A stretch of DNA of 64,000 bases from Candidatus Kapaibacterium sp. (GCA_963665665.1 OY762428.1:5184001-5248000); one strand, 5' to 3'. Counted from the first letter of the stretch, positions 7,391 to 21,393 are shown. Numbers and translations: made by a program. Notes: a model not told the origin generated them from the letters alone.

Positions 7391-7696
7391 ATGAATTTGA
7401 ACAGCTCCCAAATAATTAAAAAGGTAGAAGAATTTTCAGAAAAAATTCGACTTAACGGAGTTGAAAAACTTGGATTATTCGGATCTTATGCCAGGGATGA
7501 GGCAGATTACGAAAGCGATATCGACTTTATTGTTCAATTTGTTTCAGGTCAAAAATCTTATAAAAACCTGTCTGATTTATATTTCCTTCTTGAGGATTTA
7601 TTCGGAAAAAGGATTGAAATTGTAACGCCTGAAGGCATTAAACCATTGTTTTTTGAGAATATAAAAAATGATATAATTTATGCCAAGATCAATTAA
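7391..7696 (+). CDS. Minimal nucleotidyltransferase (MNT/MntA-type antitoxin)
   Basis: LFGSYARDEADYESDIDF (GS-x10-DxD), 101 aa, overlapping a DUF86 gene. Confidence 0.9.
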   Translation: MNLNSSQIIKKVEEFSEKIRLNGVEKLGLFGSYARDEADYESDIDFIVQFVSGQKSYKNLSDLYFLLEDLFGKRIEIVTPEGIKPLFFENIKNDIIYAKIN

Positions 7697-8015
7697 ACTA
7701 CTTATTGAAGATATCCTGGAGGAAATTTTTTTTCTTGAGAGAAATTCAAATATCAACGAAATAGAATTTTTGGATAATGAATTGCTCCAAAGAGCATTTG
7801 TAAGAAGTTTGGAGGTTATCGGGGAGGCTACAAAGAAAATTCCGATTTCAATTAAGGAACAATATCCGAAAATTCAATGGAGAGAAATGGCCGGAATAAG
7901 AGATATATTGATAAATGATTATTCAGGAATAGATTACTCTATTGTCTGGAATGTAGTAGAGGAATATATTCCGCTTTTGAAAGAAAAATTAACAAAAATT
8001 GAGATTGATGAGTAA
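7680..8015 (+). CDS. HEPN/DUF86 (HepT-type) toxin with catalytic His replaced by Asn
   Basis: AFVRSLEVIGEATKKI and PKIQWREMAGIRDILINDYSGID; R-x4-H reads R-x4-N. Confidence 0.85.
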   Translation: MPRSIKLLIEDILEEIFFLERNSNINEIEFLDNELLQRAFVRSLEVIGEATKKIPISIKEQYPKIQWREMAGIRDILINDYSGIDYSIVWNVVEEYIPLLKEKLTKIEIDE

Positions 8016-8844: not shown

Positions 8845-10149
8845 TCAAAAAGGGTGATCCACGAACATTTGAATTTCTGTTGATTCCGCTCCTTTTCCAA
8901 CGTCAACTCTAATTACAATACCGTCCATGAAAAATCTTATTCCGCCGCCAACAGACCACTGTAAATCTTTGTGAAGAGTTGATAATTTCCATTCCGGGGC
9001 TACTCTTCCTACATCGGCAAAGGCAACTACCTGGAAAAAGTCTATCCCGATTTTTCGGGTAAAATCCCAGTATTCCATGGGATTCCATTTCAGGTTTTGC
9101 CTGAGTTCGGCTGAATAATAGATCATAGCTTTATCAAAATATCGGAAATTTATAAATCCCCGAAGTTTTTTAAATCCGCCAAGGTTTACACCTGCAAAGA
9201 ACTGCGGCCTTTTATATTCAATGTATTCGCTTCCGTCCTGAAGCGTTGTCCTGCTTTTTATATCATACCAGGAAGGCGTATCCATAGTATAAAAATTCAG
9301 GGCTAATACCCTCGGCGCTTCTCCTGATTCTTTATCATAAACAGGAATATACCATCTCAGGTCGGCCTTCCATGCACTGAACTCGCTGTTCGAACCCAGT
9401 GCACCCCAATCATCAAGTAATGCGAATTTAAAATAATTTCCGCATGTCGGATTAAAGAAGTAGTCCATATTTTCCCAGGTTAAGCCATATTCTAACCCGA
9501 ATGTAACTGGTTTCAATTTCACCCCGTTATCTGTTTCCAGGTTGTTATTTCTGTAGAAAGCTTTTACGTTGATAAAAGTCCGGCCGCTTTTAATCGGATT
9601 AATAAAATTATGCGCGCCGGTTTCACCTGATATCAGAATGCCTTTGTCAAATTTGTAGTTTGTGAATGGATTTTTTCCATCGCCGATAGGGAGGAGGTAT
9701 TTCAAAGTGAATTCATACCATTGGTCTGTTCCGTCCATAACAATATAGGAATCAGCCCTAGAATCGTTTGAACCGGCCGGAGGATCGTCAGGGCTTTTAG
9801 CAACAGCGTAGGACTTTACATTTTTTACTTTGCCGGCGTAAAGGTCCGGGCGAAAAAAAAGTCTTGGAAAAAATGGAAATTGAAATTCTTCAAGCTGAAG
9901 GTAACCATAATAAGTTCCAAGAGTGGAAACTATACCGCCAGCTTTCAAAAGAGTCTGTTCCTGGGCAAATCCCTTGTATCCGACAAAACCTCCGAAAGCC
10001 CAGTCAATAGAAGCATTGTAAAATGCAAAGGGCAGCATGACGAATGAAGGTTCTTTCTTAGAATTTAAACTGTCGCTGTCAGCTATAAGTAATGATTTTG
10101 CAAATAATATTATTACGATAAACGCGATATATTTTTTTAAATAATGCAT
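8845..10149 (-). CDS. Omp85/BamA-TamA superfamily outer-membrane beta-barrel, apparently without POTRA domains
   Basis: Signal peptide; GGFKKLRGF (VRGF-like lid motif); VAFADVGRV and SVGGGIRF strands; ends in F (HPF). Confidence 0.75.
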   Translation of the reverse strand: MHYLKKYIAFIVIILFAKSLLIADSDSLNSKKEPSFVMLPFAFYNASIDWAFGGFVGYKGFAQEQTLLKAGGIVSTLGTYYGYLQLEEFQFPFFPRLFFRPDLYAGKVKNVKSYAVAKSPDDPPAGSNDSRADSYIVMDGTDQWYEFTLKYLLPIGDGKNPFTNYKFDKGILISGETGAHNFINPIKSGRTFINVKAFYRNNNLETDNGVKLKPVTFGLEYGLTWENMDYFFNPTCGNYFKFALLDDWGALGSNSEFSAWKADLRWYIPVYDKESGEAPRVLALNFYTMDTPSWYDIKSRTTLQDGSEYIEYKRPQFFAGVNLGGFKKLRGFINFRYFDKAMIYYSAELRQNLKWNPMEYWDFTRKIGIDFFQVVAFADVGRVAPEWKLSTLHKDLQWSVGGGIRFFMDGIVIRVDVGKGAESTEIQMFVDHPF

Positions 10150-10152
10150 ATT

Positions 10153-12531
10153 TTACTTTTTCCTGAATAATTTTAATATCCCCGGAAGAATAACTAATGT
10201 TGCAAACCAGATCATGAATAAACCAAGGCAGGCGAAAATACCGATGGATTCAATGCCTGTGTGGTGGGCGAAAACCATACCCGAATATCCGAGAAGAGTG
10301 GTGAATGTTGCCAGTGAAAGTGGCCCTGTAAGTTCCTTCTGTGATTCGGATACATTTTTTCCCAATTCCCGCCAACGACGTATATAGTGTACTCCGCCGT
10401 CAACGCCCATTCCAAGAAGAGCGGGGATAACCACAATATTGAAGAATGATATTTTCAACCCTGTCAGCGACATAATACCAAGAGTAGCGCCGATTCCGAG
10501 TATTAAGGGTATAAGCACAAGCAGAGTGTCAACGATGGATTTATTACTGAGCCATACCAGCAATACAATAGCGGCAAATGTGGCGATACCTATCCAGGCG
10601 CTTTCGCTGAAGACGAGCCATAATAACTCTGCAAAGATCACTGTTTCACCGACCGGACCCTGAACTTTATCAGGAATATCCAGTGCGTATAAGTCGCGGG
10701 TAAATTTCATGGCGTTGCGGCCGTCTTTTCTTTCCTCTTCTGGATAGATTGTCAGCAGGTAATCATTACTGTCAAGCCCAACGAGAGAACTTTTCAAAAC
10801 ATCAGGGATTTCGTCAACGGAAGCGCATTTTTCCGGAATTTCCCATTCCCTGATTTTTTTGATTATATTCCTATATTCTTCATCCTCAACTTTATCGGCC
10901 CAGCTTCCTGAAAGTATATCTTTTATTTCTTCAATTAATTCAAGTCTTTCCTCTGCATCTTCTTCGACGGGGGCAAAATCTCTGATACTTCTTATCCTGC
11001 CTATCATAGACGAATCTTTGTTTGCCGCGTTCCTCACTTCTGCGTTAAATTTATCAAGAGCGTCTATTCCCTTAGCAAGATAAATTGCAGCCGGACTCAT
11101 TGATTTTGAAAATACTTTTCCGTGTTTTTCTCTTACCTTCAGGTAATCGCCAATTTCTGCCTTGTCGAAATTCATGTTGCTAAGATTATAATCAAAGCTG
11201 ATGGAGAATATCGAATAAATACCCAGAATCAAAGCAAGGGCGGCCAATGGAATTGAAACCCATGTTGGAAGGGTCATGGATTTTTCAGTTTTTCGGACGC
11301 CCTTACGAAATAGATTATAACGGGAAAAAATTATTAGAATGGATGGCAAAACAATATACATAGCCAGGAGAATGCACAATATTGATATTCCGGCTATGAT
11401 ACCAAATTCGGAGAATCCACGAAAACCGGAAAAAGCCAACACTGCAAGCGCCAACGCGGTCGTCAGTCCTGAAACAGTCACAGAAACACCTGTTGATTGG
11501 TATGTTATTATCAAAGCTTCCCGTACAGAATGATTTTCTAGCTCAAGAATATACCTTTTTACAAGATGTATGGAGAAATCAACCCCCATTCCAAACATTA
11601 TTAGAATAAGGAAAGAAGTAATCAGGTTAAGAGGCCCTACTGCCAGGGAGACAATAGCGAAGCCCCATATCAACCCGAATATTAAAGGAATCAGGACGGC
11701 AATCACTGGAAAAACCGCCCTGAAACCTATCACCAACAACAATATTATCAGAACTGAAGCAATTAATCCGGAAGTATTCAGGTCTCCGGTAATAGTATCC
11801 AGTTCATTTATTTTGTTTCTGTGATTGCCCCCGATACCGGTCCGGACAGAATATTTCCGTTCTGTACTTTTACAGATTGCTCCTATTTCAGAGTAAATAG
11901 TTTTAATCTTTCCTATGCTGCTTATTCCTTCAGCAGTTGGTATCATTATTCCGATAATTTTTCCGTCCCGGCTTTCGTAATATTCAGGCAGGCTAAGATA
12001 CTGCCTGATCATTACGTTCATATCCTGTTCGTTTTCAATATCATTATGAGTTTTGGGCTCATTATTATTGTCTGCATTACCCAGATCTTCGACGAAGGGA
12101 TTGGCTTTTGCCTCCCAGTCAATAGCCATATCATAAAGTGTTTCCAGGTAATCATTCGGAATCAGTGTAAAACCGTATTTACTTATAAATTCCATCGGAA
12201 ACTTTAACCTTACTTTATCAACATCGGGAAGCTTCTTAAGTTCGGCTGCTGCATAATTTGCCGCCTGAACAAGTTTATCCCGGTTTTCGGACTCAAGAAA
12301 TACAATAAAATGTCCCCTGTCGCCTATCTTATCTTCAATCAGGCTGTTATTAACAACGGATTTATTATCTTTCGGCAGCAGGCTCATCAGATTTGTATCA
12401 ATTTCCAGCTTGCTAAGTGTTAGTTCAGCAGGCGCAGTCAGAAGTAAAATCATAATCAGAGATAAAACAGGCCTTTTATAAATTGCTTTCAATATTCTTG
12501 TAACAGTTCTATCATACATCCCGTTCGGCAT
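10153..12531 (-). CDS. MMPL/RND-family lipid transporter (HpnN-like)
   Basis: Duplicated architecture with GMGVDFSIHL and GMGVDGGVH TM4/TM10 motifs, SGLTTALA and ATFTT. Confidence 0.9.
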   Translation of the reverse strand: MPNGMYDRTVTRILKAIYKRPVLSLIMILLLTAPAELTLSKLEIDTNLMSLLPKDNKSVVNNSLIEDKIGDRGHFIVFLESENRDKLVQAANYAAAELKKLPDVDKVRLKFPMEFISKYGFTLIPNDYLETLYDMAIDWEAKANPFVEDLGNADNNNEPKTHNDIENEQDMNVMIRQYLSLPEYYESRDGKIIGIMIPTAEGISSIGKIKTIYSEIGAICKSTERKYSVRTGIGGNHRNKINELDTITGDLNTSGLIASVLIILLLVIGFRAVFPVIAVLIPLIFGLIWGFAIVSLAVGPLNLITSFLILIMFGMGVDFSIHLVKRYILELENHSVREALIITYQSTGVSVTVSGLTTALALAVLAFSGFRGFSEFGIIAGISILCILLAMYIVLPSILIIFSRYNLFRKGVRKTEKSMTLPTWVSIPLAALALILGIYSIFSISFDYNLSNMNFDKAEIGDYLKVREKHGKVFSKSMSPAAIYLAKGIDALDKFNAEVRNAANKDSSMIGRIRSIRDFAPVEEDAEERLELIEEIKDILSGSWADKVEDEEYRNIIKKIREWEIPEKCASVDEIPDVLKSSLVGLDSNDYLLTIYPEEERKDGRNAMKFTRDLYALDIPDKVQGPVGETVIFAELLWLVFSESAWIGIATFAAIVLLVWLSNKSIVDTLLVLIPLILGIGATLGIMSLTGLKISFFNIVVIPALLGMGVDGGVHYIRRWRELGKNVSESQKELTGPLSLATFTTLLGYSGMVFAHHTGIESIGIFACLGLFMIWFATLVILPGILKLFRKK

Positions 12532-12548
12532 TTATTCCCCGCGAAAAA

Positions 12549-13112
12549 TTATTTCTTCAATTCTTTTAATTTGGACTTCAATCTTGATATGATTTGATCG
12601 TAGCTTTGCTTTTTGAACAATTTCCTGAATTGTTTTTTGTAATTTTTACTTGTGCTTATATCCTCTACGATATAGTTCACAATTTTCCATTTGCCTGATA
12701 TCTGTTTCATTTCGTAATTGATACTATAGCTTTTCTCTCCTGATTTAACATTAGTTTTAACAGTTGTCAGCCCGTCGTTTGTCTCTTCGCCAAGGTAACT
12801 GATGCTGTATGATGAGAAACCGGAAAGTTTATCTGCAATTGAATATTTTACCATTTCAGCAAAAACATCTTTTATATCTGCACACTGTTTGTCGCTTAAA
12901 TTCTTGCAGTATTTGTCCAGAACATCAGAGGAAATACATGAAAAGCAGGAATATTCTTCCAGTTCTTTAGCAATTTTCTCTTTGGATTTAACGCCGGATA
13001 TTTTTGAGTTTAGCGTCTTTATAATATCCGTTGCTCCGCCTCCGGCGGCATTTATCAGTGCAATTGCCGAAAAAAATATGATAATGTTAAAAATTAACTT
13101 CACTTTCATCAA
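12549..13112 (-). CDS. MlaC/Ttg2D/HpnM-family periplasmic lipid shuttle
   Basis: Signal peptide; INYEMKQISGKWKIVNYIVEDIS...NYKKQF matches the MlaC C-terminal pattern. Confidence 0.8.
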   Translation of the reverse strand: MMKVKLIFNIIIFFSAIALINAAGGGATDIIKTLNSKISGVKSKEKIAKELEEYSCFSCISSDVLDKYCKNLSDKQCADIKDVFAEMVKYSIADKLSGFSSYSISYLGEETNDGLTTVKTNVKSGEKSYSINYEMKQISGKWKIVNYIVEDISTSKNYKKQFRKLFKKQSYDQIISRLKSKLKELKK

Positions 13113-14472
13113 TCCACCTTAAATATTTTTCGAAAGTTGTTGTTTTTGAGGCAAGGTCGGCCAGAGCCTTATGATAATCAAGTATCATAGCTATTCTCCT
13201 GCCTTTAAGTTCGTAATAGGTTTTGTATGCCCTGATAAGCTTTTCAGCATCGCCAAATCCCATTTGCCAGTTATCCAGACCAAGAGCAAGCCACTTCTCC
13301 GCATTTTTAATGGATTCGTCAACTTTTGTTATCAGGCTGAAAATTCCGGAAGCATCGTTAAAAGACTGAATAACTTCAATTTTTACTTTTGTTTTGAGAA
13401 GTTCAAGATTCTCTTCCTGAACTTTAAGTTCCAATTTGTCAGAAGCGGCTTTGTCGCCGGAAGTAAGGAAATTTAAATTCCATGACATTCCGAGAAAAGC
13501 GCCCAGGTTCAGGTAATTGAAACTGTCGTACACAAATGGATTTGTCTGATCGTCCCTCCCCGGGGCGTACGCATACTGAACGCCTCCGGCCAGATATATC
13601 ATTGGCAGTGTTGAATTTCCCGCAAGCTGTGCCTTTTTTCTTAAAGCTTTAATTCCGGATTCGAGAGCTTTTATATCACTTCTTTCGGATAAAGCGGTTT
13701 CAATAGCAATCTGCCGGGCTGTGGCGGACGTATCCATTCGGGGAATTAATTCCATATCAAAAGAAATACTGTCACATCCGGTGATTTCTTTGAAAGCCAT
13801 TCTAACTGTTTGGTAGCCGTTTTTAGCTGTGGCAGAGACACTTTCAATCATGAAGTAATTGGATTTTACTTCCAAGAGGTCGCTTTCATCCAGGTCGCTG
13901 TCCTCTTTTTCAATTTCCTTATTTACTTCTTCAGTCAGCTTGGCAAAATTTGATTCAAGTTCATCAGCCAATTTAACAGAGTTTTTCAGAACGTTAACAG
14001 TCCAGTATGATTTTGCAATAATGTAACGGAATTTGTCAAGTTCAATTTCATTCATCCTGTCGCGGAGGTTGATTCCTTCTGTTGCCAAATCTTCGGCATT
14101 GTCGATTCTTCCAAAAGTATAAATCGGCTGCATAAATGTAAGTTCTGCCCTGACAAATGGCCCCCAGGAGTCAAGGTCTGTCTGTTTATCCTGCGAGAAA
14201 AAAACATCGCCCCTGGCATCGGGAACAATTCCGCCATTGATGTTCATTTTAATCTCAGGCAGGAATTTCATATCTTCAACCGTTCTGATATCCGTTTCAG
14301 CTAACTCTCTTTGAGCTTTGAGTTTCTCTAAAACATGAGATTCTCCGCCAAGGGCTGCCTTGACGACAGCCCTCAGTTCGTTTTGCCAAACCTTCGGTTC
14401 GGCCTTCTCTGCGGAGAAAATTTCAAGTTTGGGTTGTATTAAAAAAAATAATATAACGATTAATCTGGTCAT
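13087..14472 (-). CDS. TolC-family outer-membrane channel
   Basis: Signal peptide; two OEP repeats (FLPEI...QPIYTFGR; LPMIYL...MSWNL). Confidence 0.85.
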   Translation of the reverse strand: MTRLIVILFFLIQPKLEIFSAEKAEPKVWQNELRAVVKAALGGESHVLEKLKAQRELAETDIRTVEDMKFLPEIKMNINGGIVPDARGDVFFSQDKQTDLDSWGPFVRAELTFMQPIYTFGRIDNAEDLATEGINLRDRMNEIELDKFRYIIAKSYWTVNVLKNSVKLADELESNFAKLTEEVNKEIEKEDSDLDESDLLEVKSNYFMIESVSATAKNGYQTVRMAFKEITGCDSISFDMELIPRMDTSATARQIAIETALSERSDIKALESGIKALRKKAQLAGNSTLPMIYLAGGVQYAYAPGRDDQTNPFVYDSFNYLNLGAFLGMSWNLNFLTSGDKAASDKLELKVQEENLELLKTKVKIEVIQSFNDASGIFSLITKVDESIKNAEKWLALGLDNWQMGFGDAEKLIRAYKTYYELKGRRIAMILDYHKALADLASKTTTFEKYLRWIDESEVNF

Positions 14473-14515
14473 TTTATACTTTTAATATATACTAACATTT
14501 TTTAAAATGATAATA

Positions 14516-15832
14516 TTACACGCTGTGCCCATTTGAATCGAGATGAGTGATAACCTCTTCGCCCATCATTTTCCTCAAAGTGTTTTTCATCTTCATGAGC
14601 TGGATGAAAAGGTCATTTTCCGGAACCACATTTTTCTTATGCATCGGGCTTTTGAAATAGAATGAAAGCCATTCCTGAATACCTTTCATTCCGGCTCTGG
14701 ACGCGAGATCGTTCAGTAGTACAAGGTCGAGGCAAATTGGTGCTGCAAGGATAGAATCCCGGCACAGGAAATTGATCTTCAATGACATCTGGTAACCCAT
14801 CCATCCGAATATATCAATATTATCCCAGCTTTCCTTGTTGTCTCCACGAGGCGGATAATAGTTTATTCTTACTTTATGATAGTAGTTGTCGTAAAGATCA
14901 GGATAAACATCCGGCTGAATAATACTTTCGATCACTGAAAGTTTTGATTCTTCTTTTGTTTTGAATGACTCAGGATCGTCAAGAACTTCGCCATCCCTGT
15001 TGCCGAGTATATTACTCGAAAACCAGCCGTTAAGCCCAAGCATCCTGGCCTTAAGCATTGGAGCAATTACTGTTTTCAACATTGTCTGGCCGGTTTTAAA
15101 ATCCTTTCCGCAAATCGGAACTGAATTTTCAATTGCCAGTTCTTCAAGGGCCGGGACGTCAATTGTCAGGTTCGGAGCGCCGTTGATATACGGAACTCCC
15201 TCTTTGATTGCAGCCCAGGCGTATAGCATGGACGGAGAAATATCCTCGTGGTTATCCTTCATGGCCTGTTCGAAACGATGGATACTATTATGAACTTCTG
15301 ATTTACTTAGGAATACTTCCGTAGAGCCGCACCAGATAACCACGAGTCGGTCTAGCTCATTGTTTATTTTAAAATTTTGAATATCATTTCTCAGTTGCTC
15401 TGCAAGGTCATATTTTGTTGAAGCGGATTTAATATATTCGCCTTCAAGGTTATGTACGTAAGCCTGGTCGAAAACTCCGGGCATAGGTTTTATATTTTCA
15501 AGTTCGTCTTTTATATTGATATAGTCTCTTTCTTCGAGAACAGCATTGGACTGAAGAGATTCAAATAGGTTTTCATCCCGAATATCCCATCCGCCAAAAA
15601 CAATATCATCAAGGTTTGCCAGGGGTACAAAATCTTTTATCATCGGAAATTCATTGTTGATCCTTGCGCCTATCCTGATAGTCTGCATTTGTGTTACCGA
15701 GCCGACCGGTTGAGAATAGCCCCTTCGGATAGCTATTGTACCTGCTATAAAAGTCGAGGAAACAGCACCGTTCATACCTACAACGAGAACGCCGAGCTTA
15801 CCGTTTGCTTCTTTGATCTGTAACTTATCCAT
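14516..15832 (-). CDS. ino1: myo-inositol-1(3)-phosphate synthase (MIPS)
   Basis: IWCGSTE, YINGAPN, GKDFKTGQT, NILGNRDG, PPRGDNKESWD and CRDSILAAP. Confidence 0.96.
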   Translation of the reverse strand: MDKLQIKEANGKLGVLVVGMNGAVSSTFIAGTIAIRRGYSQPVGSVTQMQTIRIGARINNEFPMIKDFVPLANLDDIVFGGWDIRDENLFESLQSNAVLEERDYINIKDELENIKPMPGVFDQAYVHNLEGEYIKSASTKYDLAEQLRNDIQNFKINNELDRLVVIWCGSTEVFLSKSEVHNSIHRFEQAMKDNHEDISPSMLYAWAAIKEGVPYINGAPNLTIDVPALEELAIENSVPICGKDFKTGQTMLKTVIAPMLKARMLGLNGWFSSNILGNRDGEVLDDPESFKTKEESKLSVIESIIQPDVYPDLYDNYYHKVRINYYPPRGDNKESWDNIDIFGWMGYQMSLKINFLCRDSILAAPICLDLVLLNDLASRAGMKGIQEWLSFYFKSPMHKKNVVPENDLFIQLMKMKNTLRKMMGEEVITHLDSNGHSV

Positions 15833-15855
15833 TTCATGCCCTTCAATAAATCTTA

Positions 15856-16560
15856 TTAATCCATGTTTATAATTACATTGGTTATTTCTGAAAAATCACT
15901 GATGATGATATCATAATCAGGTTGGTCATCATCATTTACCCACGATTTGTTTTTTAGCCAAATTGATCTTGCACCCAGTTCGATTGCAGGAGCAATATCA
16001 TTTTTATATGAATCTCCAATAATTACAACTTCATTATTTTCAAGCTTCAAAGCATCTATACCCATTTGCCATATTGTCTTATCAGGCTTCCTGATATTGA
16101 TTTCACCCGAATCGATCAAGCAGTCAATTTGATATAATACTTCGAATTCCTGCATTATTGATTTCAGGTTTCCATAGAAATTTGATACAATCCCAATTTT
16201 ATAAAATTGTTTTAATATCGACAGATATTCAATATTTCCGGCTATGGTTTTTGATACTTTATGGAAAATATTATTACAAATATTTCTCCCCGTTTTATCA
16301 GAAATCTGAATACTTGTATTCTTTCTTAGATAATTTATTTGAGAATAGATTTTCAAGCCTAATGTTTCGGAAAGCCTCGTATCCGGAGGGATAATTATCT
16401 TAGCCATTCTTCTTTCTGCAAAGATGTATGCTTCTCTGAATATATCTTCGTCAATATCCAAATCAAACTCTTTGTAGGATTGTAAAAAATACCTGAACCA
16501 GTGAATACCACCGGTATCGATAGTTCCTCCGAAATCGAACAATAATCCTTTTATACTCAT
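15856..16560 (-). CDS. HAD-family phosphatase (putative inositol-lipid phosphate phosphatase)
   Basis: FDFGGTIDT, VSNF, RKPD and IGDSYKND motifs; operon context. Confidence 0.8.
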   Translation of the reverse strand: MSIKGLLFDFGGTIDTGGIHWFRYFLQSYKEFDLDIDEDIFREAYIFAERRMAKIIIPPDTRLSETLGLKIYSQINYLRKNTSIQISDKTGRNICNNIFHKVSKTIAGNIEYLSILKQFYKIGIVSNFYGNLKSIMQEFEVLYQIDCLIDSGEINIRKPDKTIWQMGIDALKLENNEVVIIGDSYKNDIAPAIELGARSIWLKNKSWVNDDDQPDYDIIISDFSEITNVIINMD

Positions 16561-17549
16561 GCCCCGGTCCTTTTGTTAAGAATTGGTATTATCAGAAATC
16601 CTGCTGCTATCCAGAATATTTCCCGGATACGTGTTGTAAGTGAAACAAATAATCCCAGGCCCGGAGCAAGGCTTAATGTTGCAATTATAAATGTAAGGCT
16701 GCCTTCACGGACTCCAAGCTGCATCGGTATGAAAAATATCATATTAGCTATCAGCGATGATGCCGCTGAAATATATATTGCGTCAGCAAAACTTATATTA
16801 ATTCCAATTGCTTTCAGAATCAGGAAAAACTCAAAAGAAGCAACAATTCTGGAAACTAATTCAAAGCCCAGTGATTTATAAAATCCACTTTTGTCATTTT
16901 GATAAAAATCAGATATTAATACATCAATTTCTTCAAGCTTTGCTATATAATGTTTTTCCGAAAGGATTTTTCCTATAAGCGGCAACTGTACAAGGATTTT
17001 GTGCAATTTGATAATAAATCCCTTTTTGAACAGGGACATAAAAATTGTCAAAAGCAATCCTGTAAAAATTACAGAGCAACAGATAATCATAAGGTTGTCG
17101 CCTTCAAGCCCGAGGCTTGCCAGCATGATAATCAGGCCAAGAATCCAGAACCATACATGTGAATACATGTGCATCATTGAATACAGAAGAACTGCCGCAG
17201 CAGATCTTGAGCCGGTAATTTCTTTTCCGAGAACAGACATTCTGTATGGCTCGCCGCCAAGGCTGACAAAAGGCGTTACATAATTAATTGCATACCCTGA
17301 AATTGTTAACCCGAGTATTTTTGAAAATGAAACTTTGTCTGATTTTGAATTAATAATAAATTTCCACGACATGGCATTCAGAAGATAAACCGCAAGCCAT
17401 ACGAATAATATCGGAATAAAATACCAGGATACTTGCGAAATTTTTTCTAACATCAGCACTATTCCGTAATTATTTATCATAAGCGCAATGGCGATTAATC
17501 CGGCTAAATAAAGAAGGATTTTGAAATATTTTTTTAGTACAGCCTTCAT
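16557..17549 (-). CDS. Lysylphosphatidylglycerol-synthase TM domain / flippase-like membrane protein
   Basis: About 8 TM helices; INYVTPFVSLGGEPYR and PMQLGVREG motifs. Confidence 0.85.
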   Translation of the reverse strand: MKAVLKKYFKILLYLAGLIAIALMINNYGIVLMLEKISQVSWYFIPILFVWLAVYLLNAMSWKFIINSKSDKVSFSKILGLTISGYAINYVTPFVSLGGEPYRMSVLGKEITGSRSAAAVLLYSMMHMYSHVWFWILGLIIMLASLGLEGDNLMIICCSVIFTGLLLTIFMSLFKKGFIIKLHKILVQLPLIGKILSEKHYIAKLEEIDVLISDFYQNDKSGFYKSLGFELVSRIVASFEFFLILKAIGINISFADAIYISAASSLIANMIFFIPMQLGVREGSLTFIIATLSLAPGLGLFVSLTTRIREIFWIAAGFLIIPILNKRTGA

Positions 17550-18457
17550 TACTCAGCAAACTCCCAAATCAGTTTCCTGCTCATACTTTCATGCCTTAAA
17601 ACCATATATATCAAAAGTAGATTCAATACCGTCAGTTCAAACCACAGGTAAATCCAAACATTGCCGAGAAGAACAGAGATGAATAATGTGATCATCCTTG
17701 TATTGGTAGTAAGGATATTTGTATATTTCATTAGTGGTTTACTCAGTTCACGGTATCTTTCGCGCATGTAAGCCGGTATATTGTCTCCGTATTTTCCAAC
17801 AACAAAATCTCTGAAAATTCCGTATTTGCGGGCAATAAATTGCTGCTGGCTAACATAATTAATAAACATTCTTAAATATAATTTCCTGAAAAAATCCGAC
17901 TTCCAACTAAGTGATTTGTAGTCCTCTTTAAGTTGTTTCAGGTCTTCGATATCTTTCAAGCTGTTCTTGCCGATAAATATCAGATGCTGCGTACGATAAT
18001 AATCAGCCATGGCTGCCTGGAGGGAGTGGAAAGCACCCACCATTATCATGAATAAGAATATAGCTGGAGAGTAACCTTCATTTATAAGCCTCAACATTAG
18101 GTGAACGTAAATACTAACAAACCAGAGATTGCCTGCAAATCCGTCCAGGAATCGCCCGAGTTTGGTACAGTTATTTGTCATTCTGGCAAGTTGGCCGTCG
18201 GCGCTGTCCAGCAGATTGGCAAATACCAGGCTGATAATACCGATAATATTCAAAGTCAGATCATGATAATAGAACATGTGCCCGGCAAGTATTCCCCAGA
18301 AAATGCTAATGATAGTTATCGGATTTGGCGTTAGGCCTACTTTTTTTGAAAACAATGCAATCAGGTAGCCAACCGGCCTGTAAAATATCAGGTCGAGTGT
18401 TTCTTCCGTGTCGGCCGATTTTAATGTTGATTTTAGTGTACTTTTTTGCTCTACCAT
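17549..18457 (-). CDS. CDP-alcohol phosphatidyltransferase (putative PIP / inositol-lipid synthase)
   Basis: TPNPIT and DSADGQLARMTNNCTKLGRFLD (DxxDGxxAR...GxxxD). Confidence 0.92.
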   Translation of the reverse strand: MVEQKSTLKSTLKSADTEETLDLIFYRPVGYLIALFSKKVGLTPNPITIISIFWGILAGHMFYYHDLTLNIIGIISLVFANLLDSADGQLARMTNNCTKLGRFLDGFAGNLWFVSIYVHLMLRLINEGYSPAIFLFMIMVGAFHSLQAAMADYYRTQHLIFIGKNSLKDIEDLKQLKEDYKSLSWKSDFFRKLYLRMFINYVSQQQFIARKYGIFRDFVVGKYGDNIPAYMRERYRELSKPLMKYTNILTTNTRMITLFISVLLGNVWIYLWFELTVLNLLLIYMVLRHESMSRKLIWEFAE

Positions 18458-19329
18458 GTCTGTTCTTCCAGTTCAAATAATTCAAATTTCTGTGATCTGC
18501 GTTGTTCAATATTTTGAAATATAACTTTTGCTATCATTCCCGAAGCCTCTTCCCGAACAGGAGCGAAGCTGGGCCAGTCGTTGATATCTATAAAATAAAT
18601 CTCTCCGTCCGGTGTAATTATCGCATCACCCCCGAAAAATTTAAGGTCAAACAAGTTTGCGCAACGAAATATTTCATTTTTAAGCTTACTTTTGCTGAAA
18701 GGATATTCGTTATGGCCATTTGCGTAATACCAGTAGATGTAATCTGCTTCAGGGACGGCATAAAATTTAATCTCATCGCCGCCAATATGCTCCATAACCG
18801 AGGCTTTGCTGATTCCCCTTCTCATGAACTCTTTCAGAATATTACCTAACTCGGAGGGGGAATAAACTTTCACAATATCTTCGCGGTGATTTATATGCCC
18901 TTCCCTTTTTACCCAAAGTTTATTTTTCGAGAATGCGGATGCTATCCTTTCGGCATATTTGTAATCTTCAGTACTCACGGTAATATTAACCGGGGTGGAA
19001 ATATTATTTCTGGTGAGTATGTCCATCATGTTTTCCCTGTGACAGTTCCTTACACCCCTGACCGAGTTAAGAATCATGGAATTATTATTCTCTAGATTTT
19101 TAAGATTTTTCAAAGCGTTTGAACTTCTTGCCATCGTAAAAATTACATCTTCTGTAATATTTATTTTATCTAAATCATTTTCATCATAATAGTTTACTAT
19201 TGTACCCATATTTTTAAGTTTTTCGCCTGTTAGCTGGAGTATAATACTGTCGTTATCCACGTGGTTGGGTGAGAACCTTGTAGCCCTTCTGATAGCAGCG
19301 ACACTTTTTATCATATACTCGCCTTCCAA
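18451..19329 (-). CDS. ATP-grasp protein, ITPK1 (inositol phosphate kinase)-like
   Basis: LWVKR, VMEHIGGDEIKFYAV and FFGGDAII...IYFIDINDWPSF ATP-grasp motifs. The kinase role is inferred. Confidence 0.65.
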   Translation of the reverse strand: MEGEYMIKSVAAIRRATRFSPNHVDNDSIILQLTGEKLKNMGTIVNYYDENDLDKINITEDVIFTMARSSNALKNLKNLENNNSMILNSVRGVRNCHRENMMDILTRNNISTPVNITVSTEDYKYAERIASAFSKNKLWVKREGHINHREDIVKVYSPSELGNILKEFMRRGISKASVMEHIGGDEIKFYAVPEADYIYWYYANGHNEYPFSKSKLKNEIFRCANLFDLKFFGGDAIITPDGEIYFIDINDWPSFAPVREEASGMIAKVIFQNIEQRRSQKFELFELEEQTW

Positions 19330-19334
19330 ATAGT

Positions 19335-19778
19335 TTAATAATTTATCTTAATGACCTGTTCAACTTGTTTGTCCTTTACTTCAAAACACGCGTCGTCGAA
19401 GTCCGGAATACCCATTCCGAGGAATGCTTTTGCATTGTTCGAGCAAGCCCAGCCTTCGCTGGGAAGGCCAAGAAAAGTCTTATCCATTTTCTTGTTTCCG
19501 TTTTCATCATGATGAACTGTAAAAGCATACTTGCCTGGTTTAAGCCCTGCGAAAAGGAATTCGGCCTGCATATCATCAAGATCGAAATCATTAATATATT
19601 TCATAGCTTTTTTTGAATTAGTAGGATAGCCGTCCTCGCTATTAAAAATGTGGCAAACCACCCAGCCGTTTGAATTTCTGAGCCCGTTCACCACGACATG
19701 AACCGAGCCGGTTGAACCAGCGCCGGTGTCAGACGGAGCTATGAGCAGCAACACAAATAAATATATTATTATATTCAT
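19335..19778 (-). CDS. DUF2141 family exported protein
   Basis: Signal peptide; PGKYAFTVHHDENGNKKMD...GLPSEGWACSNNA. Confidence 0.85.
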   Translation of the reverse strand: MNIIIYLFVLLLIAPSDTGAGSTGSVHVVVNGLRNSNGWVVCHIFNSEDGYPTNSKKAMKYINDFDLDDMQAEFLFAGLKPGKYAFTVHHDENGNKKMDKTFLGLPSEGWACSNNAKAFLGMGIPDFDDACFEVKDKQVEQVIKINY

Positions 19779-20476
19779 TTCTCATCCTTTAAAAATTTTT
19801 CGGCTTTATCAATATCTTTAATATGGTCAACATCAATTATCTTTGAAAATTCAAAGGCTTTAACTTTAAGTTGTCTTTCAAGAAGCATTCTCTGAAAATT
19901 TCTGAGCATGTGAATTCCTTTGTCAAAACATTCATTCAGAACATCAATAACTGTCGGAGCGAAGTAATATATTCCTCCGGATACAAGGCTTGTATCTTCC
20001 CGATCATCCGGGAATGCCGTTATATCATGGAATTGATTGGTTCTTATATATAGCGGCTTTTCGTCGTCGATATAGGGGGTTGCAGCCATAACAGCATCAT
20101 AATCGTCAAGATTTCTTGCGTAATTGATGTAACTGCTAAACTCTTTTTCCCTGAAAACGGTGTCAACAGTAAACAGGCAGAAATAATCGTCTTTCAGCCA
20201 ATCTCTCATTTCATACAGGCTGTGCATAGAACCGGGTGTATTCTTAACGAGAAGATTGATATTCATTCCATTTGTTATTTTTTTAATGTGTTTCTCCAGG
20301 GTTTCCGAATTTCCATTGATAATAATTGAAAGGCTGTTATAATCAAATTTTGATATTAGTTGTATCAGTCTTTCTATCATCGGAATGCCGTTGAGTTTTA
20401 CTAAACCTTTTGGTTTATTAAGGCCTTCATTGTTGAGCCTGGAACCCAACCCCGCTGCGAGAATGGCGAAATTCAT
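19775..20476 (-). CDS. NTP transferase (putative inositol-phosphate cytidylyltransferase)
   Basis: MNFAILAAGLGSRL...PKGL and IDVD. Start placed at ATG 20476; the track's upstream extension to 20575 crosses a palindromic operator. Confidence 0.85.
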   Translation of the reverse strand: MNFAILAAGLGSRLNNEGLNKPKGLVKLNGIPMIERLIQLISKFDYNSLSIIINGNSETLEKHIKKITNGMNINLLVKNTPGSMHSLYEMRDWLKDDYFCLFTVDTVFREKEFSSYINYARNLDDYDAVMAATPYIDDEKPLYIRTNQFHDITAFPDDREDTSLVSGGIYYFAPTVIDVLNECFDKGIHMLRNFQRMLLERQLKVKAFEFSKIIDVDHIKDIDKAEKFLKDEK

Positions 20477-20511
20477 ATTTAACCTGTTAATATATCTAAA
20501 TGATTTAACAT

Positions 20512-20539
20512 AAAAGATTAACCAATTGGTTAATCTTTT
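20512..20539. promoter_or_regulatory. Perfect 28-bp palindrome, probable operator of the inositol-lipid operon
   Basis: AAAAGATTAACCAATTGGTTAATCTTTT, 35 bp upstream of the operon's first ATG. Confidence 0.7.
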
Positions 20540-20760
20540 TTTTTTCAATTTACAATTTTTTTTTAATACCAGCAAAACATTTTTAACTGAATGGTTAAAT
20601 AATATTTATAATATATGTATTACTTTCACTTAAAACATATAATAAACTACATAGGTATAAATAGTATACATAAGAGTATAAAAATTTCTGTCCGATAAAA
20701 ATTATTAACGGATTTTCACTATTCCGACTATGCAGAATATTTTATTTTATTACCTGACTT

Positions 20761-21393
20761 CTATCTTTTAACCAAGCCATTCATGGTAATATCCATGAAA
20801 ACTTTTGAAATTCGTTCAAAATCGGAATCTGAATGATCACCCATGATCAATGCGTCAAAAAAGACGTGAGTTAAAATTATATAAGCATCAATATCGATAT
20901 CTTCTCTTATAATGCCATCTTTTTGGCAATCGTCCATAAAATTTTTGAATATTTCATGGCTGACTTCATCTTTCTGTTTCAATTCTTTCTTAAGCAAAGG
21001 ATATTCTATTGACACATCCTTTGCAAATCTTCTCGTAAAACCACTGAATCGCTTCGGAATATCGTTGAACAATATTTCAAGTTTTTCTTTATTAGTTTTG
21101 TTGCTTGAAATAATTTTTTCAATAGCTGCTTTATTATCTAACATGCCGCTCAGAAAAAGTCTGGATATCAGATTTTCCTTGCTGCCTATAATCGCATATA
21201 ATGTTTTCTTTGCAAGACCACTGTTCCTGGCAAGATCGTCCATATTCCAGCCTTTTATGCCATATTTCTCGATTAATTCCAAAGCGTTCTCATAAACAAC
21301 TTCTTCGTATTCTTTGTTATTAACTTTTTTCATCCTTCTCGCACCTTGCTTATACTGTCTCGTTTCATTTAGTGTAAGATACGAATTTTCCAT
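20761..21393 (-). CDS. TetR/AcrR-family regulator
   Basis: ALELIEKYGIKGWNMDDLARNSGLAKKTLY HTH; GGAG upstream of 21393 (alternative start 21333). Confidence 0.88.
   Translation of the reverse strand: MENSYLTLNETRQYKQGARRMKKVNNKEYEEVVYENALELIEKYGIKGWNMDDLARNSGLAKKTLYAIIGSKENLISRLFLSGMLDNKAAIEKIISSNKTNKEKLEILFNDIPKRFSGFTRRFAKDVSIEYPLLKKELKQKDEVSHEIFKNFMDDCQKDGIIREDIDIDAYIILTHVFFDALIMGDHSDSDFERISKVFMDITMNGLVKR

Follow-up and report, generated by a model that had tools for sequence, protein, structure and literature searches.

A putative inositol-lipid gene cluster followed by an OEP-MlaC-MMPL transport module in Candidatus Kapaibacterium sp.

Eleven consecutive ORFs on the minus strand were recognized at 8845-20575 in the ORF listing of the window (the whole analysed stretch of 64,000 nt from Candidatus Kapaibacterium sp., GCA_963665665.1 OY762428.1:5184001-5248000). 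On balance, they appear to represent a single operon for producing an inositol-phospho(sphingo)lipid and for a dedicated transfer of it between membranes. Judged by gene content, the first seven genes are a putative alternative inositol-lipid cluster together with a conserved ATP-grasp gene and a DUF2141 gene. Pfam scores of all assigned families are above each curated cut-off. The features, in the order of transcription and followed by the upstream region, are:

19775..20476, minus strand: NTP transferase, cytidylyltransferase-like (Pfam NTP_transferase 51.1 bits, NTP_transf_3 50 bits)
19335..19778, minus strand: DUF2141 protein (Pfam DUF2141 100.5 bits)
18451..19329, minus strand: ATP-grasp-fold enzyme, ligase-like (profile and predicted fold)
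17549..18457, minus strand: membrane CDP-alcohol phosphotransferase of the "alternative cluster" type (Pfam CDP-OH_P_transf 49.4 bits)
16557..17549, minus strand: LPG_synthase_TM/flippase-like membrane protein, HpnL-resembling (Pfam LPG_synthase_TM 94.9 bits)
15856..16560, minus strand: HAD-superfamily protein (Pfam HAD_2 56 bits)
14516..15832, minus strand: myo-inositol-1-phosphate synthase, MIPS/Ino1 (Pfam NAD_binding_5 357.3 bits, Inos-1-P_synth 116.5 bits)
13087..14472, minus strand: TolC-like outer-membrane factor, OEP (Pfam OEP 111.9 bits, two repeats)
12549..13112, minus strand: MlaC-like periplasmic lipid-binding protein, HpnM-resembling (Pfam MlaC 94.6 bits)
10153..12531, minus strand: MMPL/RND inner-membrane transporter of 792 aa (Pfam MMPL 115.3 bits)
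8845..10149, minus strand: Omp85-family outer-membrane beta-barrel (Pfam Omp85 43.2 bits)
20477..20760, no strand: AT-rich spacer of 284 bp 5' of the operon, candidate promoter/operator region (from sequence)
21455-22798 (OEP) and 22815-25901 (AcrB): canonical RND efflux genes just upstream (Pfam)

Spacing between the genes, from Omp85 up to the NTP transferase, is 3, 17, -26, 43, 23, -4, -1, -7, 5, and -4 bp. The range of -26 to 43 bp bears out the sequence-only reading of one minus-strand run in which no gap exceeds 43 bp and several genes overlap, and all family calls of that reading were reproduced, the ATP-grasp call by profile and fold only. Its upstream end at 20539 did not hold, as the first gene's longest ORF extends to a TTG at 20575 and the probable start is an ATG at 20476. 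Since homologues of the NTP transferase align only from residue 31-34 on and this ATG is preceded by aggttaaat, the gene probably spans 19775-20476. Inside the spacer, a perfect palindrome of 12+12 bp is present at 20512-20539. A terminator scan found no minus-strand terminator-like sites within the intergenic gaps of the run. The genes could also be two unrelated units, namely an inositol-lipid operon (14516-20476) and a separate OEP-MlaC-MMPL-Omp85 unit with its own promoter and a function in general lipid, solvent, or envelope homeostasis. This reading seems unlikely; it draws on the largest gap (43 bp), which lies exactly at the MIPS/OEP boundary and has weak promoter-like matches (9 of 12), and the promoter scan overall was not above shuffles (54 found vs. 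45.4 +/- 6).

The NTP transferase carries a GLGSRL motif, read from the sequence, and is a candidate for the enzyme that converts CTP and inositol phosphate to CDP-inositol. The CDP-alcohol transferase has the signature DSADGQLAR...GRFLDGFAG and is a candidate for coupling inositol phosphate to either ceramide or diacylglycerol. In this signature, Gly replaces the fourth Asp, both in the window and in 36 of the 57 ORFs of the family. Motif I of the HAD protein is atypical as well, D-F-G-G-T here and D-[FY]-G-G-T in all 30 cluster orthologues, with Gly at Asp+2 in 30/30. These atypical motifs of both key enzymes were counted against the best explanation. The LPG_synthase_TM protein has seven hydrophobic segments and matches the flippase-like domain TIGR00374 with 53.9 bits (cut-off 43.2), and the DUF2141 protein has a hydrophobic signal-like N-terminal segment (residues 1-21). 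MIPS is encoded once in the genome of 5.46 Mb, where four CDP-OH-family, seven NTP-transferase-family, and one CerS-like ORF were counted at the same thresholds. No Pfam or NCBIfam family was assigned to gene 18451-19329. When a profile of 30 homologues was compared with PDB, ATP-grasp chains were matched (7drm with 2e-6, RimK 7qyr with 9.2e-5), and the AlphaFold model of the product (mean pLDDT 93.9) revealed in Foldseek similarity to D-Ala-D-Ala ligases (Ddl), RimK, PsnB, and LysX/ArgX, with E about 1e-13 and TM about 0.7; the earlier ATP-grasp call thus stands. The gene recurs in 23 of the 30 inositol loci, defined as those loci of the phylum sample with an orthologue of the CDP-alcohol transferase.

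Di-myo-inositol phosphate synthesis follows the same gene logic, with MIPS, a cytidylyltransferase, a CDP-alcohol transferase, and a phosphatase-like HAD protein. This shared logic would suit a soluble or polymer-bound inositol compound (an osmolyte of the di-myo-inositol-phosphate type or a capsule component), with the transport genes exporting it or being unrelated. Such a product is very unlikely. Inositol is found in the Bacteroides capsule (PMC9246714), and two cluster enzymes match the IPCT/DIPPS model NF041135 weakly, with 49.7 bits for the NTP transferase and 26 bits for the other, but both values are far under the cut-off of 580. An MlaC lipid carrier, an RND pump of the lipid type, and a membrane domain of the MprF type are conserved together here, and Spt-CerS-CerR ceramide genes adjoin the cluster, at no more than 20 kb from the inositol genes, in 4/30 loci. 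At locus L148, a single run contains them along with MIPS, NTP transferase, ATP-grasp, CDP-OH, LPG, and HAD genes. Species with the alternative cluster make an inositol sphingolipid, inositol-phosphoryl dihydroceramide (PMC9246714). The genome of the window has a Spt-like gene with NF047600 as the best model (486.9 bits, below the NCBI cut-off of 640); a CerS-like gene occurs in 384 of 401 phylum-sample genomes, so its presence in this genome says little.

The alternative inositol-lipid cluster was described as putative, also in its biochemistry, in Bacteroides vulgatus and Prevotella by Heaver et al. 2022 (PMC9246714). The biosynthetic half of the run resembles it, as had been proposed, in NTP transferase, CDP-alcohol transferase, HAD, and MIPS, and it shares the LPG-synthase-like neighbour. 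At 49-53% identity, the CDP-alcohol transferase matches proteins named from Bacteroides, Prevotellaceae, Barnesiella, and Coprobacter (Bacteroidales). The window differs by its conserved ATP-grasp gene, DUF2141, and the downstream OEP-MlaC-MMPL-Omp85 run, and the words MMPL, flippase, DUF2141, and ATP-grasp do not occur in the main text of that paper.

HpnN is an experimentally studied hopanoid RND transporter, and HpnL, HpnM, and HpnN are the best NCBIfam names of three genes of the run. It is extremely unlikely that they are a true HpnL-HpnM-HpnN hopanoid trafficking set placed by chance beside inositol genes, as all three scores are far below the cut-offs: 100.6 vs. 195.65 bits for the LPG_synthase_TM protein (HpnL, TIGR03476), 45.6 vs. 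160.1 for the MlaC-like protein (HpnM, TIGR03481), and 276 vs. 751.85 for the MMPL protein (HpnN, TIGR03480). No credible squalene-hopene cyclase was found in the genome, the best match scoring 29.6 bits and covering 94 of the 319 profile positions in a frame of 342 residues. In the FastTree tree, the pump is in a clade of 39 rows with 100% local support, together with ceramide-linked Acidobacteriota pumps and separate from four HpnN-labelled proteins; it appears to be HpnN-related but of a separate clade.

The MlaC-like gene is the sole member of its family in the genome, and no MlaA (MlaA/HpnS-type lipoprotein) was found anywhere in it. A complex of MMPL and MlaC was predicted with a score of 0.59 (best control 0.01), with no less than 93% of contacts shared between runs and a pLDDT of the partners of at least 82. 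Of 157 solved complexes, 116 attained the mark applied, as did 2 of 215 mismatched pairs; at a score of 0.60 or less, it was attained by only 18/157 solved complexes and both passing mismatches. These counts hold only roughly because own alignments were used. The prediction weakly suggests that the MlaC-like protein binds the MMPL protein. The Omp85 protein has no detected POTRA domain, and its model is of low confidence (pLDDT 57) and all-beta from about residue 35. A membrane-fusion adaptor is absent from all 11 trio-bearing loci annotated with Pfam. That the TolC-like protein would have to work without an adaptor was counted against the best explanation.

Related loci in several phyla, 74 in total, were found with the MMPL profile. 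The MMPL gene has OEP and MlaC as companions in 29 of them, and by this recurrence the three are a conserved module. The "four-part" transport module claimed previously is kept as this trio only, Omp85 being with it in a single locus (L031). The ten genes from NTP transferase to MMPL recur in unchanged order in six other loci (L022-L026 and L039) with proteins 27-71% identical, and on this ground the arrangement is not a product of chance. DUF2141 occurs in 6/74 loci, every time within the full cluster. The kin are not independent, as all six full-cluster loci belong to a single lineage, and the eight Acidobacteriota and ten Nitrospinota-type ceramide loci to two. Among 41 related genomes, only G008 (locus L026) also carries the pump.

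MIPS, NTP transferase, or CDP-alcohol transferase is present in 28/74 pump loci, two or more of Spt, CerS, and CerR in 17/74, and inositol-type or ceramide-type genes in 36/74. In the neighbourhood survey of MMPL and ino1, MIPS lies within about 10 kb of the related MMPL gene in 11/74 loci, so the two do co-occur elsewhere and the proposed coupling withstood this challenge. The trio has inositol/CDP-alcohol genes or Spt-CerS-CerR genes as neighbours. Layouts in Pfam annotation include a short MIPS-NTP transferase-OEP-MlaC-MMPL (L041), NTP transferase-CDP-OH-Wzx-DUF3047-OEP-MlaC-MMPL (L040), CerR-CerS-Spt-MlaC-OEP adjoining MMPL (L036), and Spt-CerS-CerR-CDP-OH-MMPL (L076). These meetings in several phyla and differing layouts speak against two unrelated units, as does the MIPS/OEP junction kept in the six full-cluster loci and L031 at the same protein identities. 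The two-unit reading has on its side the remaining 38/74 pump loci, where none of the searched lipid genes was seen (many are short contigs), and the inositol cluster standing without the trio in 30/30 phylum-sample loci. As none of the 30 has an adjacent RND trio, the coupling in the window is rare.

In 15/30 inositol loci, MlaE-ABC-MlaD (MlaE-MlaF-MlaD) genes are between the NTP transferase and the ATP-grasp gene, in the slot occupied by DUF2141 here. Clusters of this kind, with Pfam run on L101, belong to sister families of the same class. Five of the 15 genomes were tested, and none has an HpnN-like MMPL or any MlaC-family gene. With an RND trio here and MlaE-MlaF-MlaD there, the lipid-transport module would be a recurrent but interchangeable part of the inositol cluster, carried in RND or MlaFED type by many relatives, which is a further point against two unrelated units. 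Homologues of MlaE/MlaF in the genome of the window are elsewhere (C1:3407646-3409142). In 5/30 inositol loci, each of them without MMPL, Omp85 directly follows MIPS. Set against the single pump locus of 74, this suggests that Omp85 is associated with the inositol genes and not with the pump; its orthologues in G069 and G201, genomes from which the query used retrieved no MIPS, indicate that it is not tied to the pathway.

The same machinery could work in the opposite or a homeostatic direction, with the trio retrieving the inositol lipid or another one, or balancing it between the membranes, instead of exporting it to the outer one. The MlaC-family carrier favours this, as does MlaE-MlaF-MlaD of the sister clusters, a system that has been described as retrograde in E. 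coli (10.64898/2026.08.28.747810). We regard this reading as improbable, as HpnN-type MMPL/RND proteins have been described as exporters toward the outer membrane (PMC11713862, PMC12324291) and a place inside a biosynthetic operon suits delivery of a new product better.

In the HpnN-HpnM-HpnS model of hopanoid trafficking, the pump is followed by a shuttle and then the outer membrane (PMC12324291). The window shares a paired MMPL/RND pump and MlaC-family periplasmic protein and the HpnL-like LPG-synthase-TM protein, but it misses all three Hpn models widely, has no hopanoid cyclase, has a TolC-like OEP and here also Omp85 in place of MlaA/HpnS, and has inositol or ceramide lipid genes as neighbours instead of hopanoid ones. 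By analogy, the system may be a variant of HpnN/HpnM-type lipid trafficking. With the Mla system (MlaFEDB-MlaC-MlaA) it has in common the MlaC-family carrier, and sister clusters embed MlaE-MlaF-MlaD in the inositol operon; its inner-membrane partner, however, is an RND pump and not an ABC/MCE complex, and MlaA is absent. Tripartite pumps of the AcrAB-TolC type likewise encode an RND-superfamily pump and a TolC-family factor together, whereas the window lacks the adaptor, its pump is of the MMPL type and not ACR_tran, and a lipid-binding MlaC gene is between pump and OEP genes. How a specialised non-LPS lipid arrives at a diderm surface is also the subject of work on Caulobacter, in which sphingolipid transport depends on LptF2/LptG2, a different machine made of Lpt paralogues (10.64898/2026.04.12.717747). 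That no characterised system has such a composition holds in the literature searched. The nearest hint is one sentence in the same preprint, which proposes that an MmpL encoded downstream of Myxococcus xanthus spt could offer another route of sphingolipid export and names no MlaC, OEP, or Omp85 partners or inositol genes.

From the observed order of the genes, their families, their conservation, and their recurrent linkage to genes of lipid synthesis, we infer each chemical step, what is carried, and which way it is transported in the favoured reading of synthesis and delivery by one operon. MIPS, of which the family assignment is strong, would convert glucose-6-phosphate to inositol phosphate, the NTP transferase would turn this into CDP-inositol, and the CDP-alcohol transferase would place phospho-inositol on a lipid alcohol, preferably ceramide to give inositol-phosphoceramide, or alternatively diacylglycerol. 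The ATP-grasp enzyme, the atypical HAD protein, and DUF2141 may act on or with the head group. By analogy, the LPG-synthase-TM protein would flip the lipid to the periplasmic leaflet, where the HpnN-like MMPL pump would extract it at the expense of the proton gradient and hand it over to the soluble MlaC-like carrier. The carrier would deliver it at the outer membrane, with the co-conserved TolC-like protein as acceptor, since the genome is without MlaA; the Omp85 barrel may also take part in this delivery. The operon is a testable candidate for how inositol-headed lipids reach the outer membrane.

Eleven successive ORFs were found on the minus strand between 8845 and 20575 in the ORF listing of the window, which corresponds to C1:5184001-5248000 of G000, a single-contig genome of 5.46 Mb. 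In order of transcription, they code for an NTP transferase, a DUF2141 protein, an ATP-grasp protein, a CDP-alcohol transferase, an LPG_synthase_TM protein, a HAD-superfamily protein, MIPS, a TolC-like protein (OEP), a MlaC-like protein, an MMPL pump, and an Omp85-family protein. Spacings from the Omp85 gene upstream to the NTP transferase gene are 3, 17, -26, 43, 23, -4, -1, -7, 5, and -4 bp, which bears out the tight run of 11 genes described in the sequence-only reading. Ten of its 11 family calls were reproduced above the curated Pfam cut-offs (NTP_transferase, DUF2141, CDP-OH_P_transf, LPG_synthase_TM, HAD_2, MIPS, OEP, MlaC, MMPL, and Omp85), and the ATP-grasp call through protein names, profile, and fold. 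The end of the NTP transferase gene placed there at 20539 was not retained; the most likely start is the ATG at 20476, versus 20575 for the longest ORF.

An AT-rich spacer of 284 bp separates the putative operon from the upstream TetR gene. A perfect palindrome with 12-bp arms and a 4-nt centre (AAAAGATTAACC AATT GGTTAATCTTTT) lies in it at 20512-20539, 36 bp upstream of the probable NTP transferase start and downstream of the TetR gene, and could be an operator. Together with a second OEP and an AcrB-type pump, the TetR gene makes up a separate, canonical efflux set. Downstream, the neighbour of the operon is a convergent DUF4931 gene on the plus strand. The surrounding features are as follows:

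7391-8015, plus strand, MntA-like nucleotidyltransferase and HepT-like RNase (Pfam NTP_transf_2 and HepT-like)
20761-21393, minus strand, TetR gene of the upstream RND efflux set (Pfam)
21455-22798, minus strand, second OEP of the upstream RND efflux set (Pfam)
22815-25901, minus strand, AcrB-type pump of the upstream RND efflux set (Pfam)

The pair at 7391-8015 has a type VII toxin-antitoxin layout, with both members under the NCBIfam equivalog cut-offs. Among related loci, a TetR gene comes after the MMPL gene in L022, and an OEP gene stands before the NTP transferase in L025. Neither the promoter scan (54 vs. 45.4 +/- 6; a method ill-suited to promoters of this phylum) nor the terminator scan (16 vs. 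11.3 +/- 4.1) rose above shuffled sequences. Among the sequencing runs listed for 12000-17000, none is recorded as RNA.

The putative alternative inositol-lipid cluster of Heaver et al. [quoted passage not shown] It occurs in species that lack the B. thetaiotaomicron-type genes and make inositol-phosphoryl dihydroceramide; the steps of this pathway are unconfirmed, and homology to B. vulgatus proteins was accepted there at BlastP E below 1e-8. All four required families pass Pfam cut-offs together within 14516-20476 of the window, and the biosynthetic half matches this putative cluster type in gene content, in line with the resemblance pointed out before. The comparison for the CDP-alcohol transferase covered proteins named by source from uncultured Bacteroides, Prevotellaceae, Barnesiella, Coprobacter, Melioribacter, and Ignavibacterium, to which the enzyme shows 49-53% identity. 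It scored 27 bits against the model of the BT_1523-type PIP synthase (NF052561, BT_1522/23/25 cluster; cut-off 350). Against the IPCT/DIPPS equivalog of di-myo-inositol phosphate synthesis (NF041135; cut-off 580), the NTP transferase and the CDP-alcohol transferase reached 49.7 and 26 bits, respectively. In a phylum sample of 401 genomes, 30 had an orthologue of the CDP-alcohol transferase at E 1e-30 or better; 30 inositol loci from 29 genomes other than G000 were scanned with profiles built in this analysis.

Two enzymes of the cluster have atypical motifs. In the CDP-alcohol transferase signature (D-x2-D-G-x2-A-R-x8-G-x3-D-x3-D), the first three Asp residues are kept and the fourth is Gly (DSADGQLARMTNNCTKLGRFLDGFAG); of the 57 ORFs examined in the subfamily, 36 share this Gly and 13 have Asp there. 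Motif I of HAD phosphatases is D-x-D-x-T/V, with the Asp at +2 as acid/base. The window has D-F-G-G-T, and D-[FY]-G-G-T is found in all 30 cluster orthologues, so that Asp+2 is replaced by Gly throughout, while motif IV (GDSxxxD) is retained. As the genes are conserved, these motifs were not counted against function; to judge from them, textbook reactions should not be assumed for either protein.

The third gene belongs to no Pfam or NCBIfam family. Many of its homologues carry the JGI name "glutathione synthase/RimK-type ligase-like ATP-grasp enzyme", a profile of 30 sequences matches ATP-grasp chains in the PDB, and the model (pLDDT 93.9) is matched in Foldseek by D-Ala-D-Ala ligases (Ddl), RimK, PsnB, and LysX with E about 1e-13 and TM 0.57-0.72. 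The predicted fold is that of an ATP-grasp protein, in line with the original call. An ITPK-type inositol kinase was considered and rejected, with weak C-terminal profile matches (9.4e-5 to 8e-3) and ligases only among the Foldseek matches shown. The gene lies beside that of the CDP-alcohol transferase in 23 of the 30 inositol loci and is for this reason regarded as a regular cluster member; the main text of PMC9246714 does not mention it.

Sister clusters vary in gene content. In many of them (L135:8190-11455, L031:232-3466), a class-III aminotransferase is coded between the ATP-grasp and CDP-alcohol transferase genes and a GFO/IDH/MocA oxidoreductase after the latter, which points to a head group of the amino-cyclitol (inosamine-type) kind; neither gene is present in the window. 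Genome G139 has two copies (L103, L141), one with Omp85 and without MlaFED, the other with MlaFED and two tandem ATP-grasp genes, which are also present in L137, L138, and L142. A second head-group operon of G000 at C1:1163357-1166012 (L167:3357-6012, minus strand) codes for a HisC/CobD-like PLP enzyme and for one more member each of two families: a CDP-alcohol transferase of the subfamily found in the window (182 bits against a profile built in this analysis) and an NTP transferase (89.3 bits against the IPCT/DIPPS model). Its product may be an amino-alcohol phospholipid or sphingolipid, e.g., ceramide phosphoethanolamine. Besides the DUF2141 gene of the window (19335-19778), G000 has two further DUF2141 ORFs. 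According to a 2026 preprint (10.64898/2026.10.02.756314), DUF2141 aligns with the C-terminal domain of LptZ, a Bacteroides envelope protein associated with Lpt.

The MMPL protein has a Pfam MMPL domain in two stretches (115.3 bits) and hydrophobic segments clustered at residues 247-439 and 631-790, and was assigned to the MMPL/RND superfamily, which is defined by this domain and some 12 transmembrane segments split over two halves. In a set of 41 related genomes that includes G000, a full-length match outside G000 was obtained only in G008 (51% identity, E 2.4e-264); nine others gave partial matches to other RND proteins, and the protein is rare among the relatives. A profile of 47 homologues led to 74 loci from species-representative genomes, which were scanned by tblastn and locally built HMMs, with representatives checked in Pfam. 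In a FastTree analysis of 73 pump sequences, a quick method with midpoint root and several long branches, the window falls into a clade of 39 rows with 100% local support, which also holds ceramide-linked pumps of Acidobacteriota and leaves four HpnN-labelled proteins outside. The pump misses the HpnN cut-offs (TIGR03480, 276 vs. 751.85; NF052374, 139.4 vs. 1100).

The MlaC-like protein belongs to the MlaC/Ttg2D family (Pfam MlaC, 94.6 bits vs. 26) and has a hydrophobic N-terminus at residues 1-28, judged by eye to be a signal; against HpnM (TIGR03481), it scored 45.6 vs. 160.1. It is the product of the single MlaC-family gene of G000. No MlaE or MlaD was found within the operon by Pfam, and no match to the MlaA family in the G000 genome (99.5% complete), so the outer-membrane partner must be something other than MlaA, and the obvious choice of candidate would be the TolC-like protein, which is co-conserved. 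OEP and MlaC genes both stand beside the pump in 29 of the 74 loci and one of the two in seven more, and the loci bearing the trio belong to MAGs whose titles name Kapabacteria, Spirochaetota, Aminicenantes, Acidobacteriota, and other groups. In Pfam, a membrane-fusion adaptor was found neither among the 11 operon genes nor in 11 annotated loci with the trio. Prediction of a complex of the MMPL protein with the mature MlaC-like protein was graded "weak support", with a score of 0.59 vs. 0.01 for the best control, contact agreement of at least 93%, and a partner pLDDT of 82 or more. Of 157 solved complexes, 116 reached the mark, as did 2 of 215 mismatches; at scores of 0.60 or under, only 18 of the 157 solved complexes reached it, along with both passing mismatches. 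These counts apply only roughly here, since alignments of our own were used.

Head-group genes (28 loci) or at least two ceramide genes (17 loci) were found near the pump in 36 of the 74 loci. The content of the high-GC loci L071 and L091 is known from tblastn and local HMM matches only, their called ORFs giving no Pfam matches. At the same thresholds, the whole G000 genome contains one MIPS, four CDP-alcohol transferase-family, seven NTP transferase-family, and one CerS-like ORF. The full order from the NTP transferase to the MMPL gene recurs in L022-L026 and L039. L031 has a variant with the additional class-III aminotransferase and GFO/IDH/MocA oxidoreductase and with the Omp85 orthologue directly after the pump, as in the window. 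Shorter layouts are short-type MIPS, NTP transferase, OEP, MlaC, MMPL, and glycosyltransferase in L041; NTP transferase, CDP-alcohol transferase, Wzx-like, DUF3047, OEP, MlaC, and MMPL in L040; and MBOAT, DltD, NTP transferase, OEP, MlaC, and MMPL in L032. Eight Acidobacteriota loci have the order CerR-CerS-Spt-MlaC-OEP with a divergent pump, and ten loci of Nitrospinota/Nitrospirota type have Spt-CerS-CerR followed by a CDP-alcohol transferase of the window's subfamily and MMPL. In L078, the same four genes lie about 6.7 kb downstream of the pump; in L085 and L088, the layout ends at the contig edge. Layouts were counted rather than loci because kin are not independent, and the link between this pump clade and genes for inositol or ceramide lipids takes at least five distinct architectures.

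G165 was not counted as a coupled locus: its CDP-alcohol transferase gene has an OEP-MlaC pair at a distance of 9 kb, and no MMPL was found within 12 kb beyond the pair. The MMPL match of L138 is an AcrB-type protein (ACR_tran, 850 bits), and that of L142 was dropped as AcrB-type from a layout matching L138. In Desulfobulbia-type MAGs (L060:12421-15964, L045:10491-12473), a large GT4 glycosyltransferase comes after the related pump, and in L060 a PIG-L-family de-N-acetylase as well, with MIPS at the locus edge; this corresponds to the gene logic of GlcN-inositol (GPI- or mycothiol-like) glycoconjugates. In a Leptospirales MAG (L027:12826-16168), the related pump is flanked by genes for NTP transferase, HMGL-like, SDR, and 3-dehydroquinate-synthase-like proteins, the last from a family with cyclitol-forming sugar-phosphate cyclases among its members.

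The RND trio was adjacent to inositol genes in none of the 30 inositol loci. In 15 of them, all from genomes of the window's class and of other families, genes for MlaE, an ABC ATPase, and MlaD separate the ATP-grasp gene from that of the NTP transferase (in L101, Pfam MlaE 236.6 and MlaD 51.7 bits), in the slot held by DUF2141 in the window. In five tested genomes of these 15, no HpnN-like pump (E 1e-10 or better) and no MlaC-family gene was found, and neither the window nor G008 has MlaFED inside the cluster. The presence of two unrelated lipid-transport machines in the same biosynthetic operon of different lineages is in our view the strongest argument here, as it indicates that moving the product is among the tasks of the operon.

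The transport module had been described as four-part. The conserved part is the OEP-MlaC-MMPL trio; Omp85 stands outside it, following MIPS directly and without the pump in 5 of the 30 inositol loci. Its orthologues (40-46% identity) are found in 4 of 300 other sampled genomes, all of one family. In G069 and G201, Omp85 lies beside a DUF3943 gene, and MIPS was not found there with this query. Omp85 is associated with inositol genes in three layouts (window, L031, and L101-type) and is not bound to them. Its sole domain detected by Pfam is the Omp85 barrel (201-406), with no POTRA domains; the score against BamA (TIGR03303) is 24.5 vs. 297, which does not place it with BamA/TamA-type proteins. 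Its model is all-beta after the signal, at low confidence (pLDDT 57, alignment of only nine sequences). A DUF3943 gene, two small ORFs without Pfam family, and an Omp85-family barrel follow one another in L101:27-3429 and L104:9114-12785, and in L102:1841-4763 the barrel comes directly after DUF3943. This arrangement recurs in one family, in whose inositol-cluster genomes the cluster lies between paralogous and orthologous Omp85 genes.

As to the lipid itself, several findings speak for ceramide as the acceptor. Of the 30 inositol loci, 4 have Spt-CerS-CerR genes at a distance of no more than 20 kb, arranged in L148 in a single run with MIPS, fatty-acid hydroxylase, and head-group genes. A homologous CDP-alcohol transferase directly follows Spt-CerS-CerR in the Nitrospinota-type loci, and the lipid phenotype of cluster-bearing species in the main text of PMC9246714 is an inositol sphingolipid. 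A possible alternative acceptor is diacylglycerol. In G000, the Spt-like gene has NF047600 (CFB-type serine palmitoyltransferase) as its best model, with 486.9 vs. a cut-off of 640. CerS-like and CerR-like genes are also present there; since the CerS-like family occurs in 384 of the 401 genomes, its presence is uninformative and was dropped as evidence. Hopanoids are an unlikely cargo because G000 has no credible cyclase, only a partial SHC match of 29.6 bits.

In the proposed route, the lipid would be synthesized at the inner membrane and flipped by the LPG-synthase-TM protein; the RND pump would extract it and hand it to the MlaC-like shuttle, which would deliver it at the outer membrane. 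The route is modelled on the one proposed in PMC12324291 for HpnN-HpnM-HpnS in hopanoid producers. It differs from the Mla system, where the partners of MlaC are MlaFEDB and MlaA, an outer-membrane lipoprotein, in that the operon is without MlaE and MlaD and the genome without MlaA. In tripartite RND efflux pumps, a membrane-fusion adaptor is encoded with the pump and the outer-membrane factor, whereas the operon has none. A tentative reading, and a rather unlikely one when taken as a whole, is that the trio is a previously undescribed trans-envelope lipid exporter in which the RND pump loads the MlaC-like shuttle, an adaptor-free TolC-family acceptor replaces MlaA, and inositol-phosphoceramides or related sphingolipids are the natural cargo; Omp85 would insert or flip the lipid in the outer membrane.

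Literature searches, which for PMC9246714 covered the main text, found no inositol or sphingolipid cluster described with MMPL, MlaC, OEP, or Omp85, in agreement with the sequence-only reading, which knew of no characterised system of this composition. Nearest in print among the literature found are the HpnN/M/S model and a sentence in a 2026 preprint (10.64898/2026.04.12.717747) on a Myxococcus MmpL gene downstream of spt, where sphingolipid transport is said to possibly differ between taxa, and Bacteroidetes and Myxococci to possibly use another pathway. The finding would be the joining of RND/MlaC-type lipid trafficking to a known, still putative biosynthetic cluster.

For the unconfirmed "alternative" inositol-lipid pathway, the additions are the ATP-grasp enzyme and the atypical HAD and CDP-alcohol transferase motifs, which a biochemical reconstruction would need to explain. 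The concrete transport candidates are the RND/MlaC/TolC-like trio and, in sister lineages, the MlaFED set within the same inositol-lipid operon, natural alternatives that are open to knock-out, swap, and assay. If the exporter reading is true, it would be one answer to the question of sphingolipid passage to the outer membrane in those diderms that are without the LptF2G2 route of Caulobacter.
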